Below are positions 25,867-37,459 of a stretch of 64,000 nucleotides of DNA, one piece after another. Location: the IMG/VR virus record IMGVR_UViG_2513237251_000009; one strand, 5' to 3'. The stretch comes from a virus. Its lineage: Duplodnaviria > Heunggongvirae > Uroviricota > Caudoviricetes. The notes beneath the pieces were generated by a model. It ran no database searches and was not told the DNA's origin. It worked only from the letters and a program-made list of their open reading frames with translations. A program made the position numbers and the translations under genes. Position 1 is the first letter of the stretch; the number at the start of each line of letters is the position of its first letter.

Positions 25867-26181
25867 TTAGCATTTTTTTGACCGCGCGTTTCCGGACGTA
25901 TTCTGTTCTCCTGTCCCTTTATATCGTCGGAATACCCGCCGCTCTTCAAATCCCATTCCCAACTCAGAATGTAGTCTGTTGACCGCTTGTTTTATTTCGG
26001 TCAGGTTCACCGGTGAAACCGGAGTCCGGCGCGCCTTACGCAAACACTCTGCTCGTTTCTGTGCCGCCACTTTTCTTTTCTGGTCATCACTTAGCTGTAC
26101 CATCACTTTTGCCCATCGTTCAGCTGCTCTCCGGTACAGTCCTTTTTTCTCCAGACATTCTGCCAGGTGATCATGTAGCAT
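25867..26181 (-). CDS. PerC-family transcriptional activator (Pch-like)
   Basis: 104 aa with GLYRRAAERW motif characteristic of PerC/Pch; AT-rich 460-bp upstream region. Confidence 0.7.
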   Translation of the reverse strand: MLHDHLAECLEKKGLYRRAAERWAKVMVQLSDDQKRKVAAQKRAECLRKARRTPVSPVNLTEIKQAVNRLHSELGMGFEERRVFRRYKGTGEQNTSGNARSKKC

Positions 26182-26644
26182 AAGTAACCTCCGTTTATCT
26201 ACAGACTGCCATCCTGAATTTACCGTCCTTAATAAGACAACAATAAAAAACTAATTATATAAAAACAATAAAAATAATATACAAAAAAACTAAACAACAA
26301 AGAAAAGCAAATCATATCTGGCATTTTAATTGAAAGAGCAATTACCGAACAAAAGACGCTGACTATATACTCAAAACCAAACAACAATTCTGCCAATCAG
26401 GTATCATGGCAACACACGGAATTACCATGTTTTTGCCTTCTCTGCCCATACAATACGGGCATATACTTCATACTCTATTGTAATATTTCTATCCATGTGC
26501 CCCACTCCATTTACCTGTAAATAATATTCAAAATATTTATCACAGAAATCGTTTTTGGCCATGAACTGAGCACACTATAAAGTCCGGAACTGACTCTTTG
26601 TTAAATTACCTTAACGTTACCAGTAACACCTTCATAACAAAACA

Positions 26645-29730: not shown

Positions 29731-31539
29731 TCAAACGCCATACGCTGCATTTTTTGTAACATCCGTCAGCGTCAGCGCATTCAGTCCCAGTGTCAGACTG
29801 TCTTTTATAACCTGGAATGCCGGGCCAGCCACTCCATTCAGTTTCGGAGTAACCGTGGCACTGCCGGCGGTGAACACCAGCTCCAGCGTCTGCCAGTCGT
29901 TACCGTAATCGCCGAACTCCCCCAGCTTCGTGTTTCCGGCTTTCCTGTGATGCATCAGATTCACTCTGCCGTCAGTGGTCTGAGTGAAGTACGACATCAG
30001 GAACGGATTACCGGTACCCGTCATCGCCACACCATCAGGAACGGGAGCGTCCGTATACAGATAAATCCCCAGCCCGAACTGATTGTTGGTCAGTGCGCCT
30101 GACAGGCGGAACTTACAGGTCAGTCTGCCGCCCTGTGTCAGCAGGGTAATTGCGTCATCCACCGGATGCGTCAGGGACCAGGTTTTATTGCTCTGCCTGG
30201 TGATCTTAAATACACCATCTGACAACTGAATTCCGCCATCCTTAATGCTCCAGCCCTGCGCAGCAGCCTCTCCGGCTGCCGGCAGCAGGGAGATTGTGCG
30301 AACGGACGTATCTGCAGACGGACCCGATGGCGTGTTGCCGCCGGGCGAGGGTTTGATTTCCGGTGCCTTACCACTGATGAAGGCTGAGGTGCGCCCGGCT
30401 GCGTTCAGAATAGCGGTTGCCAGACGATCCGGAATAATGCTCCTGCGCGCCCATGAACTGAAATGTGTCGGGCGGTTTGATGATACCTGGTTTCCATTCG
30501 TTCTCGATGCCGCACCGTAATATCCTGATGCCGGAATATCCGGATCTTCTGCCGGCGCGTTAGTGGCGGTATTGACGCCGTTACCGTCTGTCATGAAGGG
30601 CACAAAATAAACGCCCTCACTCTCCCTGTTTTTATACCCGCCGTACACGGTGTCGTACTGGGTAGCGTATGTATTTTTCCAGTAATACGTCGTGTCACCA
30701 CAAATCCACGGCACATCTGCAGCACTGCCACCATGGCACTGCGCGTTAAACACGGAGAGGTCAGCACGAAACTGTGTCAGCATGGCTGTAAACAGCGCAG
30801 GTTGCTGTGCGTGGGTGGCGGCGCTCATGTCAAACTCTCCCTGCATCCAGCACACCGCCAGCAACACATTTTTCGGGTTCTTCTGTAATGCAGCTTTGGT
30901 GCGCGCAATCAGGTCCTGATATAACGGTTTACCCACACCCCAGCGCGCCGAATCCTGGCTGGCCCCCGTGGACTCGCTGAATATCCCCTCCGCGCCCTGG
31001 GTAAATGCCGAACCACCACGACAGCATGGTACCAGCAGGATCCCCGCGTTATTCGGGATATACGGGAGCAGTTTTTTGGCAATATGTAACCCCTGGCCGA
31101 CACAGCCGTACTGCCCTTTGCTCAGGTCTGCCTTCGGATGATTCAGCGTACTCATATCCTGCACATCATGCAGGCAGTGGTCGGCCGGAATAATATCGTT
31201 ATATCTGCAGGCAGCCCCACCCGGCGTCACTGTACTGCGGCGCGCCAGCTGTTTAATGCGCGGATCCGGAGCATCGTATGAATCCGGCAGCGGAAGCCCT
31301 TCACCGTAAGCCATGGCATTGGACTGCCCGGCCAGTACGATGACGTAGTACCAATCCGGCTCAGTTGCACCACTGACCACCACATCACCTTCTGCTGTAA
31401 TCGCCTGCATCAGGGTATAAGGGGTTATGGCCACCGGACTACCAAACGGCTGCCAGCCCTCTTTCAGTTTGTGTGTCAGCTTTTCCGCAAGGTCTGACGG
31501 CGACGCCGCCCTGACAACATCATAATGTTTAATCGACAT
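29731..31539 (-). CDS. nanS: Prophage NanS-p-type sialate O-acetylesterase (DUF1737 plus SGNH hydrolase)
   Basis: 602 aa; N-terminal DUF1737-like segment, GQSN block of SGNH esterases; sits upstream of S as yjhS/nanS-p does in Stx phages. Confidence 0.75.
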   Translation of the reverse strand: MSIKHYDVVRAASPSDLAEKLTHKLKEGWQPFGSPVAITPYTLMQAITAEGDVVVSGATEPDWYYVIVLAGQSNAMAYGEGLPLPDSYDAPDPRIKQLARRSTVTPGGAACRYNDIIPADHCLHDVQDMSTLNHPKADLSKGQYGCVGQGLHIAKKLLPYIPNNAGILLVPCCRGGSAFTQGAEGIFSESTGASQDSARWGVGKPLYQDLIARTKAALQKNPKNVLLAVCWMQGEFDMSAATHAQQPALFTAMLTQFRADLSVFNAQCHGGSAADVPWICGDTTYYWKNTYATQYDTVYGGYKNRESEGVYFVPFMTDGNGVNTATNAPAEDPDIPASGYYGAASRTNGNQVSSNRPTHFSSWARRSIIPDRLATAILNAAGRTSAFISGKAPEIKPSPGGNTPSGPSADTSVRTISLLPAAGEAAAQGWSIKDGGIQLSDGVFKITRQSNKTWSLTHPVDDAITLLTQGGRLTCKFRLSGALTNNQFGLGIYLYTDAPVPDGVAMTGTGNPFLMSYFTQTTDGRVNLMHHRKAGNTKLGEFGDYGNDWQTLELVFTAGSATVTPKLNGVAGPAFQVIKDSLTLGLNALTLTDVTKNAAYGV

Positions 31540-31852
31540 CGAATTTCTCCCGTGTACAGGAACAGAGTTAAAAAGCCGGAACCGGAATCAAATCACAGGA
31601 TGACCATCTGCCAGTGGCTGGTCGTAAAAAAAAGCCGCGCCATGCGCAGCCGGAAATAAAGGGATAACGATGATAGTTTGAGAAAAACAGAAACAACACT
31701 TTTGTGGCAAAGCATGGTGCCGGGTGCCTCCCGGTGAATTCAGTATCAGCACCTGAATCCGCGATTATCCCATATACCTGGTTGCTGATCGCCCCTCCGC
31801 ACAGGGGGATTCACCATGCAGAAGTGTTTTTAATAAACAGCAAACAAAAAAA

Positions 31853-32020
31853 TCAAGCATTATGCAGGCTGTTTCTTTTTATCACCGGCCACAGCAATAC
31901 CACAATGCCGCAGACCAGCACCCCATCCGCCAGCACCGACATGATTCTGCTGGTGAAATCCACCATCACCACCAGAAACAGCAGGAGTGCAGCCACAGCC
32001 AGGCGCAGTTTTACCGTCAC
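31853..32020 (-). CDS. Small hydrophobic protein (about 55 aa) translationally coupled to TerB-like gene
   Basis: GTG start overlaps the TerB-like stop (GTGA), SD ggag 8 nt upstream; one to two predicted TM helices; below ORF-track size cutoff. Confidence 0.3.
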   Translation of the reverse strand: MTVKLRLAVAALLLFLVVMVDFTSRIMSVLADGVLVCGIVVLLWPVIKRNSLHNA

Positions 32021-32448
32021 AGGTGATTCTCCAGACGAAGACCCAGAACACCGGCAATCTCTTCCAGCACCTTGCGCTCTTCCGGCTCAATTTCGCCGTC
32101 TGCCTCCGCAATGGCCACCGCCACATCCAGCACATCTTCCGCTTCACGCGTATCGTGTTTCACATCCTCAATCTCACGTAACGCCGCACGACGACCAGTT
32201 TTAAAGTTCGTATCCAGCTGACCGATAATGGTTGCGCTAATCGCATTAATTTCTGACGTAAACGCGGACAGCGCAGGCTGATTACGCAGTACCTGTTCGA
32301 TCTTCGCTTTCTCGGATGCCTCACATTCACCATCTGCACAGGCCACCAGGTATGCGGCGTTAATCACCACCTGTGCCAGATCGCGTTTTTCAAACTTTTT
32401 AATTTCCGTTGCCGCTCTGCGGGTTTTCTTTTTGAAGATTCCAAACAT
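32017..32448 (-). CDS. TerB-like domain protein
   Basis: 143 aa from ATG 32448 (MFGIFKKKTRR...); acidic helical protein resembling tellurite-resistance TerB fold by pattern. Confidence 0.45.
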   Translation of the reverse strand: MFGIFKKKTRRAATEIKKFEKRDLAQVVINAAYLVACADGECEASEKAKIEQVLRNQPALSAFTSEINAISATIIGQLDTNFKTGRRAALREIEDVKHDTREAEDVLDVAVAIAEADGEIEPEERKVLEEIAGVLGLRLENHL

Positions 32449-32617
32449 CGTGACGTTCCTTTGGGTGGGTGAGCCAACGCCCGGGAGCGATCTGCCCACA
32501 GAGAAAGTCACACTGACCACTCCGTAAGCTCACCCCCGAAAGGCTCTGTGGTTGGTATGCGCCGGGCGTGGCGCAGATACAAAAAAGGCCCGCCGAAGCG
32601 AGCCTGGAAAATAAGTG

Positions 32618-32694
32618 TGGCGCGTTGTAGTGGAGTCGAACCACTGACCGATTGCTTAGAAGGCAATTGCTCTGTCCGGCTGAGCTAACAACGC
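32618..32694 (-). tRNA. argO: tRNA-Arg (anticodon TCT)
   Basis: 77 nt, 7-bp acceptor stem GCGTTGT/ACAACGC, anticodon loop CTTCTAA, T-arm GGTTCGACTCC, encoded CCA; terminator hairpin downstream. Confidence 0.85.
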
Positions 32695-32794: not shown

Positions 32795-32870
32795 TGGTGG
32801 CCCTTGCTGGATTTGAACCAGCGACCTGGCGATTATGAGTCGCTCGCTCTCACCACTGAGCTAAAGGGCC
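32795..32870 (-). tRNA. ileZ: tRNA with CAT anticodon (Ile2-lysidine type or Met)
   Basis: 76 nt, acceptor GGCCCTT/AAGGGCC, anticodon loop CTCATAA, T-arm GGTTCAAATCC, encoded CCA. Confidence 0.8.
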
Positions 32871-32898: not shown

Positions 32899-33612
32899 TC
32901 AATAATCAAGCCCTTGCCTGGATACATATCTGTCTGGCGGGAAGCCATAATAGCGGTGAAATACAGAAATAAAGTAGGACCGGCTTGAATAACCACATTT
33001 TTCTGCTACAGCCTGTCCATATCCATACCGGGAACATAACATATTTACAGCAACACGCATCCGCTCTTCCAGCAACAAGCGACTGAACATGCCCCCTTCA
33101 TTTTTCAGTTTTGTCTTTAACAAACTCTCACTCATATGCAACTGTAGAGCAATCGCACCAAGCGTCCAGCTTGCTGATATATCTGTCTGAATTATCGCCC
33201 TGACTTTGGCACTTATGCTGGATAAACATCCACTTAAAAACAATGACATCCGTTCATCTGTTTCAAACAGAGACAGGCAGGCCATCATAAGAAACATATC
33301 CGTGACCTCTCCGGAAAATCCCTGGCTGGTAATTAAAGCCGCAGCCAACGCAGGATTGTTGGGTTCCAGCAACAGGTAAAGCGGAATGTCAGTCAGACGA
33401 GTCCTCGTCAGCTTATGCTGACTTTCCAGATATTGACTTACGACGGATTCGCTTATATCGACAATTTTAACTTTGCCATAATGCATAAGGAAAAGCTCCC
33501 TGATGCATTTGGTGGCCAGAACGACTGAGCCTGGCTTAAGTGACAACGTATCCTTTTCAAGAAAAATATTAATTGGGGAGCAAACCATGATAACTGAACA
33601 GACAACAGCCAT
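32899..33612 (-). CDS. AraC/XylS-family transcriptional regulator (prophage cargo)
   Basis: 237 aa with C-terminal double HTH (...YSSRSYFISVFHRYYGFPP). Confidence 0.8.
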   Translation of the reverse strand: MAVVCSVIMVCSPINIFLEKDTLSLKPGSVVLATKCIRELFLMHYGKVKIVDISESVVSQYLESQHKLTRTRLTDIPLYLLLEPNNPALAAALITSQGFSGEVTDMFLMMACLSLFETDERMSLFLSGCLSSISAKVRAIIQTDISASWTLGAIALQLHMSESLLKTKLKNEGGMFSRLLLEERMRVAVNMLCSRYGYGQAVAEKCGYSSRSYFISVFHRYYGFPPDRYVSRQGLDY

Positions 33613-37013: not shown

Positions 37014-37169
37014 TTACTTCTCAGATTCGTAGTCTACGAAGACAGCGACCTCCGTCTGACCGGTTCGGATTCGCACCTCGCAGAGGTCTTTCCTCGTTAC
37101 CAGTGCCGTCACTATGACGGTTAAACAGATGACGATCAGGGCGATTAACATCGCCTTTTGCTGCTTCAT
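37014..37169 (-). CDS. hokD: Hok/Gef-family type I toxin (HokD/RelF-like)
   Basis: 51 aa MKQQKAMLIALIVICLTVIVTALVTRKDLCEVRIRTGQTEVAVF... nearly identical to K-12 HokD as recalled. Confidence 0.85.
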   Translation of the reverse strand: MKQQKAMLIALIVICLTVIVTALVTRKDLCEVRIRTGQTEVAVFVDYESEK

Positions 37170-37459
37170 AGCCTGCTTCTCCTTGCCTTTCGGCACGTAA
37201 GAGGCTAACCTACATGTGTTCAGCATGGATTGAGCCTCAGATTAATGTTAAGCGTCTTGCAGGACGCGTAATGTTAACTGGGGCTTTTCTCTATCTGCCG
37301 TTGGTGTTCATGCCCGAGGCAGATAGCCTCAAGCACCCGCAGCAATTCTACTTAACTATCCTTTTCCCGCAAACCGTTTTTATCCCCAGCGGCAAATCGA
37401 ATACACCACCAGCGCCACCGCCATCGCAATTCCTACCGTTGTGAATGCTTCAGGCCAGG

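Follow-up and report, generated by a model that had tools for sequence, protein, structure and literature searches.

The window, that is, the whole stretch of 64,000 nucleotides analyzed here, represents Escherichia coli O157:H7 prophage Sp11 (its location in strain Sakai). Two overlapping ORFs on its minus strand, one of 143 aa (32017..32448) and one of 55 aa (31853..32020), had been described in an earlier note made from the sequence, and their positions, lengths and strand were confirmed. The 1.2 kb that spans them, hereafter tciA and tciB, was 100% identical to the genomes of E. coli O157:H7 Sakai, EDL933 and many other O157 strains. Both ORFs were intact in the window, identical copies were present in hundreds of O157 genomes, and a search of the 64-kb window yielded no second tciA/tciB copy. 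The features of the locus are as follows.

29731..31539, SASA/NanS-p-type esterase gene, downstream of tciB
31633..31651, minus strand, intrinsic-terminator-like hairpin followed by T8 (consensus scan and sequence), ending the tciAB/STnc100 unit and preceding the esterase gene
31676..31848, minus strand, STnc100-family sRNA element (Rfam RF02076, full length, 104.7 bits against a gathering score of 47, E 1.4e-22)
31853..32020, minus strand, tciB, DUF3927 small membrane protein of 55 aa with a GTG start (ECs_5731 / WP_000216636.1)
32017..32020, minus strand, GTGA stop/start overlap of 4 nt (tciB GTG at 32020..32018, tciA TGA at 32019..32017)
32029..32032, minus strand, GGAG Shine-Dalgarno-like motif inside tciA (from the sequence), with an 8-nt spacer to the tciB GTG
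32017..32448, minus strand, tciA, TerB-family protein of 143 aa (Pfam PF05099, PHROG 632; RefSeq ECs_2190)
32457..32460, minus strand, AGGA Shine-Dalgarno-like motif (from the sequence), 8 nt ahead of the tciA ATG
32586..32605, minus strand, G+C-rich, terminator-like hairpin with a T run (consensus scan), between tRNA-Arg and tciA
32618..32694, minus strand, tRNA-Arg(TCT) (ARAGORN and Rfam; argO5 in RefSeq), upstream neighbor of tciA
32795..32870, minus strand, tRNA with a CAT anticodon (Met(cat) by ARAGORN; tRNA-Ile, ileZ5 (tRNA-Ile2) in RefSeq), a further upstream neighbor

The pair is the phage tciA/tciB pair, which is already named and annotated. The genes tciA-tciB(-tciC) of phage P1 were named by Lobocka et al. 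(2004), as cited in a passage of PMC4319500, and tciA/tciB are annotated in phages P1, JLK-2012, Pollock and ChrisDB as well. The RefSeq annotation of strain Sakai carries ECs_2190 as a 'TciA/TerB-like protein' and ECs_5731 as a 168-nt ORF, while PGAP names the two products 'tellurite resistance TerB family protein' (WP_001302123.1) and 'DUF3927 family protein' (WP_000216636.1), and both PGAP names recurred throughout the E. coli matches listed. The earlier note had expected standard annotation to miss the small ORF and could assign the pairing to no named system; the first statement is contradicted by the RefSeq and PGAP entries for the small ORF, and the second by P1 tciA/tciB, by PHROGs 632 and 1470 and by the Pfam families TerB and DUF3927. 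A literature search for the locus tags ECs2190 and ECs5731 returned nothing. The window adds nothing beyond the existing annotation and the phage literature and gives no special handle on the function of tciAB.

TciA belongs to the TerB family along its full length, as had been supposed for the 143-aa ORF. It matched Pfam TerB PF05099 over residues 31-138 (E 3.7e-14; 53.4 bits, with the gathering cut-off at 24.4), its entire length aligned with PHROG 632 (E 1e-68), and a profile built from 12 diverse homologues aligned residues 13-137 with residues 19-144 of Klebsiella TerB (PDB 2JXU_A, E 4.8e-18); weak matches to DUF533 and to the TerB region of DjlA were also obtained. The AF2 model (pLDDT 82.5) was all-helical with seven helices, and its best Foldseek matches in the PDB were two TerB-like structures, 2H5N (probability 1.00, TM 0.53-0.60) and 2OU3, a 'tellurite resistance protein of COG3793', at modest E-values (6.9e-3). 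The protein contains a duplicated A-D-G...E motif (D39-G40...E46 and D117-G118...E124), whose residues varied little or not at all among 12 diverse and 29 closer homologues; the conserved acidic residues of such TerB motifs are said, after Anantharaman and colleagues in 2012, to bind metal. TciA is soluble and acidic (pI 5.1) and has no TM segment. Its residues 1-22 include nine K/R and show the highest hydrophobic moment within the protein, and this cationic amphipathic N-terminus may be a lipid-seeking helix.

The smaller product, TciB, matched Pfam DUF3927 (PF13064, E 4.3e-17, above the curated cut-off) and PHROG 1470, 'TciB-like' (E 4e-30). Two hydrophobic segments, at about residues 7-20 and 29-46, lie on either side of a conserved DFTS(R/K) motif, which together with the DUF3927 match agrees with the description of the small ORF as a hydrophobic membrane protein. 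Conserved residues included R6, D21, F22, S28, D32, W44 and P45, and the C-terminus was basic. Hydropathy indicated two segments, whereas the AF2 monomer formed a single continuous helix over residues 3-54 (pLDDT 88.9, pTM 0.49); a hairpin topology is plausible. The median pairwise dN/dS of tciB was about 0.28 across 19 diverged loci, and the gene is thus under purifying selection. Given this ratio and the Pfam and PHROG matches of both ORFs, the two reading frames are far beyond chance. The possibility that TciB is a miniature TerC was rejected, since hhalign of the TciB alignment against phage TerC returned a probability of 0.05.

At the junction of the two genes the minus strand reads ctGGAGaatcacctGTGAcgg. 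The GTGA overlap and the GGAG motif within the upstream gene, both pointed out previously, were present with the spacing given above. The ATG at 32448 was taken as the start of tciA, as the N-termini of aligned homologues (MFG...) fit this codon and not the upstream GTG at 32520. A stop/start overlap was kept in 27 of 30 diverse loci, in the -4 configuration (n=13; GTGA or TTGA), the -1 configuration (n=12; TAATG or TGATG) or the -8 configuration (n=2), and the overlap geometry is therefore a conserved property of the family. This conservation supports the proposal that the overlap reflects coupled translation. The internal GGAG, whose codons specify L-E/D in TciA, was only partly conserved among homologous loci; because it is poorly kept, re-initiation after termination would be the likelier mode of coupling.

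The gene order in the prophage was Q-like DUF1133 - AraC-like - tRNA-Ile2 - tRNA-Arg - tciA tciB - esterase - holin, and that of phage Stx2a_WGPS6 is Q - ileZ argN argO - stx2A stx2B - esterase-size ORF - holin. The position of tciAB matches that of stx2A stx2B, and the placement of the pair in an stx-equivalent slot was thereby borne out; apart from this common genomic slot, no link of the pair to Shiga toxin or virulence was found. Phage JLK-2012 shares the exact slot (Q - tRNAs - tciA - tciB - yjhS - holin). The esterase ORF of the window encodes 602 aa of the NanS-p type, with DUF1737, SASA esterase and DUF6645 domains, and downstream of it the prophage is annotated with separate genes for a class II holin, an endolysin and a spanin.

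Two neighbors of the pair were considered as parts of the module and rejected. The STnc100 element begins 5 nt past the tciB stop codon and is possibly the 3' end of the tciAB transcript. It adjoined tciB here and in JLK-2012, lay near tciB in one further locus and was absent from 16 of 19 other loci; it thus goes with the stretch that precedes the esterase gene and not with tciAB. A tRNA gene on the same strand within 1 kb of tciA was present in about 9 of 30 tciAB loci, spanning lambdoid, P1-like and jumbo phages. Since most loci lack such a gene, the tRNA genes were treated as belonging to a common cargo region.

Every context examined was a lytic transcription unit, strictly virulent phages included. 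Two lambdoid prophages of other genera carried tciAB between the Q antiterminator gene and the holin/lysozyme/Rz genes, and three P2/186-like prophages carried it after CII-Fil in a unit that extends to gpA. In P1 the pair belongs to the ban operon, which is under C1 control, and is flanked by tRNA genes. Pollock, a virulent N4-like phage, has tciAB in its early region, and jumbo Erwinia phages also carry the pair. Between the hairpin at 32586..32605 and tciA, a consensus scan of the minus strand found no promoter-like site. The upstream hairpin and this result, both from consensus scans, hint at Q-dependent late expression, like that of stx.

The allele family was present in 839 of 5426 complete E. 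coli genomes, at a median of 6 copies each. By tblastn, TciA was found in 131 phage records from Escherichia, Salmonella, Klebsiella, Erwinia, Pantoea, Pseudomonas and Vibrio, and the pair occurred in lambdoid, P1-like, P2/186-like, N4-like and jumbo phages. Identity within the family ranged from 28% to 100% across phage families, with the gene order constant. Each of the 80 IMG/VR loci had a DUF3927 ORF immediately 3' of tciA, as did 25 of the 32 loci from species-representative genomes. The earlier note had proposed a profile comparison of the 143-aa protein and a co-occurrence analysis of the pair; the protein matched TerB profiles, and the pair was widespread.

Among the seven genome loci without a DUF3927 match 3' of tciA, two carried divergent ORFs with two hydrophobic segments, one carried a frameshifted TciB-like ORF, and two (Pseudomonas juntendi and Paracoccus) carried an unrelated ORF with one TM segment. 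The last type, also present in Pseudomonas phage AF, was about 70 aa long, had a Cys-containing C-terminal domain and likewise overlapped the stop codon of the TerB gene. Members of this one-TM family, which has the motif 'C.WYGY...VGC' and was found in phages of Pseudomonas and Paracoccus, followed TerB in Pseudomonas phages AF, Zuri, Holyagarpour, Ebordelon and Lana. A Vibrio phage carried TerD-TerD-x-TerC-TerB without DUF3927. A phage TerB gene thus almost always adjoins a gene for a membrane protein, the family of which varies: phages of Enterobacterales have DUF3927, those of Pseudomonas and Paracoccus have the one-TM protein, and Vibrio phages, like ter operons, have TerC. This generalization was not found stated in the literature searched.

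The two genes were not always found together in intact form. A tciB-like gene without tciA was present in phages 434 and 2B8 and in one IMG/VR locus, where it follows the unrelated membrane protein phrog_1521, and 17 of 80 sampled E. coli prophage loci had a nonsense mutation in tciA beside an intact tciB. These loci suggest that TciB may act without TciA. No genuine TerB-DUF3927 fusions were found, the long DUF3927 matches being frameshifts or chimeras: five candidate Rosetta-stone fusions were rejected as frameshift read-throughs or assembly chimeras, and the 115 DUF3927 clusters among 1.84 billion representative proteins were essentially all stand-alone proteins of about 50 aa. As the fusion matches are artefactual, they lend no support to an interaction between TciA and TciB.

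The locus belongs to the P1-type tciAB family but lacks tciC. TciA was 40.6% identical to its P1 counterpart over the full length and TciB was 50% identical, and the gene order, the overlapping stop/start and the adjacent phage tRNA genes are common to both phages. In contrast to the window, P1 also encodes TciC, a 35-aa single-TM peptide (MGFWDFADKHPIVLVVIAGIVVGGIAGVIEALRKQ), and its tciAB lies in the C1-controlled ban operon and not, as here, in a Q-dependent late region. No TciC was found in the window, where the only small ORF after tciB (31765..31860) was not TM-like and the region is taken up by STnc100 and the terminator; TciC is missing from most other tciAB loci too.

The locus is not a ter operon (terZABCDE). 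TciA is a full-length homologue of TerB, of the same size and with the same duplicated acidic A-D-G...E motifs, and an integral membrane protein gene directly follows terB as it does tciA. However, TciB, with about 50 aa and two hydrophobic segments, shows no similarity to the multi-TM TerC, and the carrier is a phage here and a plasmid or island in the case of the ter cluster. None of terZ, terA, terC, terD and terE was present at the locus, where the neighbors are the tRNA genes, STnc100, the esterase gene and the AraC-like gene.

A TerB fold at the inner membrane is a feature that the pair would share with DjlA, YebE/DUF533, Bunzi BnzA and Dionysus DinB and DinC, and in Dionysus the TerB protein likewise comes with a second, small protein, there a multi-TM one. 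In contrast to the membrane-tethered TerB proteins, the membrane element of TciAB is encoded by a separate, presumably coupled gene. Unlike the DjlA/Bunzi/Dionysus group, TciAB has no J domain, pore-forming-toxin domain or third component, and its carriers are phages, whereas systems of the Bunzi/Dionysus type are carried in host defense islands. Membership in a known defense system was rejected with PADLOC, as the best match of TciA was PDC-S48 (E 0.0052, 13.9 bits) and TciB matched nothing.

No published tciAB phenotype or experiment was found in the literature searched. The role of tciAB in lytic phage has been described as unknown (PMC4319500), and in a CRISPRi screen tciA, tciB and tciC were non-essential for P1 plaque formation (PMC10695390). 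Genome papers have suggested resistance to tellurite, colicin or phage without tests (PMC6799933, PMC11652158), while tellurite resistance is described as requiring further ter genes, and a phage terB on its own is suspected not to confer it (PMC8421299). TerB has been reported to interact with TerC (PMC11003894) and to be membrane-associated; it occurs in the Bunzi, Shango and Dionysus defense systems, for which membrane surveillance has been proposed, and DjlA combines a TM segment with a TerB-like and a J domain. The literature on TerC, Bunzi, Dionysus and DjlA thus upholds the remark, made before this analysis, that TerB proteins recur with membrane partners.

Starting from the observed gene identity, order, overlap, conservation and context, we infer an interaction, a timing and a physiological output for the pair. 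We consider the chances about even that TciB is the membrane partner of TciA and that the two form an envelope module of the lytic cycle, which conditions or protects the membrane of the infected cell. Translation of tciB would be coupled to termination on tciA, yielding roughly matched amounts of the two proteins. TciB would then act as an inner-membrane partner that holds the TerB-fold TciA at the membrane, with the cationic amphipathic N-terminus of TciA adding a lipid contact. In this role TciB would correspond to TerC, whose gene immediately follows terB in ter operons, and to the membrane helices that DjlA, YebE/DUF533 and the Bunzi TerB protein have as part of their own chains. In this prophage, Q-dependent read-through would yield the pair largely after induction, as it does stx in Stx phages. 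The weakest step is the output, in which the inner membrane of the infected cell would be conditioned or protected; candidates include superinfection exclusion and resistance to pore-forming agents or to membrane-acting host defenses, by analogy with ter clusters, whose phenotypes include phage inhibition and colicin resistance. A broader version is possible but rather doubtful: phage TerB proteins would always work with a dedicated, swappable and coupled small membrane partner, be it DUF3927, the one-TM protein or TerC, as a lytic module directed against membrane-level host immunity or competing phages.

The gene name, the TerB homology and the position of the pair, in a moron slot that carries stx in other phages, would also agree with lysogenic-conversion cargo, expressed in the lysogen and conferring resistance to tellurite/oxidative stress or to colicin/phage, as suggested without tests in the two genome papers cited above (PMC6799933, PMC11652158). 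TciA might plug into TerC-family proteins of the host (the O157 ter island, Alx/YoaE), a route that the TerB-TerC interaction would favor. However, N4-like and jumbo phages that are strictly virulent, and so form no lysogens, carry the pair, and temperate phages keep it in lytic operons under repressor or Q control. This carriage and these contexts weaken the explanation; a terminator-like hairpin lies upstream of tciA here with no promoter-like site found, and the suspected inactivity of a lone phage terB in tellurite resistance (PMC8421299) also speaks against it. We regard lysogenic conversion as unlikely. We likewise find it improbable that TciA is an anti-defense decoy, which would mimic host TerB-type membrane sensors (those of ter 'Phi', Bunzi, Shango and Dionysus) and block their activation. 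TerB domains do occur in validated defense systems as proposed membrane-surveillance sensors, and tciA is widespread in virulent and temperate phages, with early expression in several of them, but neither protein gave a significant PADLOC match (the best being that to PDC-S48), nothing ties the phages that carry tciAB to hosts with TerB-type defenses, and a decoy would leave the need for a dedicated membrane partner unexplained.

A role in lysis timing, with TciB as a holin-, antiholin- or Kil-like membrane-toxic peptide and TciA as its cytoplasmic regulator, is suggested by the size of TciB (about 50 aa), its two hydrophobic segments and basic C-terminus, by the location of lambdoid tciB just upstream of the lysis cassette and by a historical 'inhibition of cell division' label. 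The locations of tciAB elsewhere weaken this explanation, as the pair is remote from the lysis genes, in early regions, in P1 and in P2/186-like, N4-like and jumbo phages. TciB has no dual-start motif, the pair is non-essential in P1 (PMC10695390), and separate class II holin, endolysin and spanin genes are present in the prophage; TciB was accordingly rejected as a class II holin or pinholin, and we consider any such lysis role highly improbable. The interrupted tciA genes in 17 of 80 sampled E. coli prophage loci, and the many redundant copies in EHEC genomes (median 6), could be read as signs of a decaying, functionless prophage remnant in this genome. This account is hardly credible, being weakened by conservation and purifying selection: both ORFs are intact and identical across hundreds of O157 genomes, the family keeps a constant gene order across phage families at identities from 28% to 100%, and tciB shows purifying selection.

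The TerB domain is widespread, occurring in ter clusters, in DjlA and in several new defense systems, and tciAB is the smallest natural unit of a TerB protein and a membrane partner. Its carriers include phages that are easily manipulated, such as P1 and the N4-like phages, and about six copies are typical of EHEC genomes. Being the smallest unit, present in tractable phages and repeated in EHEC, tciAB could serve as a simple model for the action of TerB at the membrane. Should the reading with swappable partners hold, the TerB domain, for long without explanation, would gain a workable two-gene model.

The 143-aa TerB-family gene tciA and the 55-aa DUF3927 membrane-protein gene tciB were not always found together as an intact pair. 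In some lambdoid phages, a phrog_1521 membrane protein of about 240–250 aa occupied the place of tciA, and a tciB-like DUF3927 gene with an altered N-terminus was located about 85 nt 3′ of it. This arrangement was observed in phage 434 and at two of the compared loci.

Loci carrying phrog_1521 and a tciB-like DUF3927 gene (each locus in its own coordinates)
L067, 309..1311
L122 (phage 2B8), 2639..3599

In addition, tciA was interrupted by an in-frame stop, with tciB intact, in 17 of the 80 E. coli prophage copies from IMG/VR (loci L009, L031, L061, L067–L069, L074–L081 and L083–L085). At L067, the sole locus read directly, the stop sits at the codon of the invariant E46. Many "partial" TerB clusters of 97 to 120 aa were present in the protein database, and they may correspond to stop-truncated tciA alleles.

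A second family of small membrane proteins, PHROG 27356 (about 70 aa, one TM), was found directly 3′ of phage TerB genes, with its start codon overlapping the TerB stop (GTGA at locus L006). The family is unrelated to DUF3927 and carries the conserved motif C.WYGY...VGC..K..G.V.R.E. It was also present in Pseudomonas phages Zuri, Holyagarpour, Ebordelon and Lana; in phage AF the ORF lacks annotation.

PHROG 27356-family ORFs (each locus in its own coordinates)
L006, 3432..3653
L102, 4441..4644
L112, 4398..4604

Separately, a tandem of four TerB-like ORFs was observed around the tciA homologue of Candidatus Pantoea communis (L095, 2893..6082); three of the four matched the TciA profile weakly (E 2e-9 to 4e-5).

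Six further features of the window prophage were located, two of them from the Sakai annotation by conversion from locus L001.

Features of the window prophage
about 25868..26182, minus strand, pchB, PchABC-family virulence regulator (Sakai; converted)
31633..31651, minus strand, strong terminator-like hairpin followed by T8
31676..31848, minus strand, full-length STnc100-family sRNA (Rfam RF02076, 104.7 bits, E 1.4e-22)
32795..32870, minus strand, tRNA gene
32899..33612, minus strand, AraC-family HTH regulator gene (Pfam HTH_AraC / HTH_18)
about 37014..37226, minus strand, mokC/hokC-type toxin locus (Sakai; converted)

The Sakai annotation places pchB after the lysis genes, on their downstream side, and the toxin locus before the Q region, on its upstream side. 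The AraC-family gene, flanked by the Q-like DUF1133 gene on one side and the tRNAs on the other, is annotated in Sakai with a shorter start as ECs_2191, "phage regulatory protein." The tRNA gene was called tRNA-Met(cat) by ARAGORN but ileZ5/tRNA-Ile by RefSeq, and is presumably of the lysidine-modified Ile2 type. Phage tRNA genes on the same strand, at most 1 kb from tciA, were seen in lambdoid, P1-like and jumbo phages; the majority of tciA loci had no same-strand tRNA gene inside 1 kb.

The N4-like phage Pollock carries a group I intron (L004, 4059..4411; Rfam RF00028, 101 bits) a few hundred bases 3′ of tciB. In the window, the STnc100 element begins 5 nt past the stop codon of tciB and ends at the hairpin. 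The element could be a 3′UTR-derived sRNA from the tciAB transcript.
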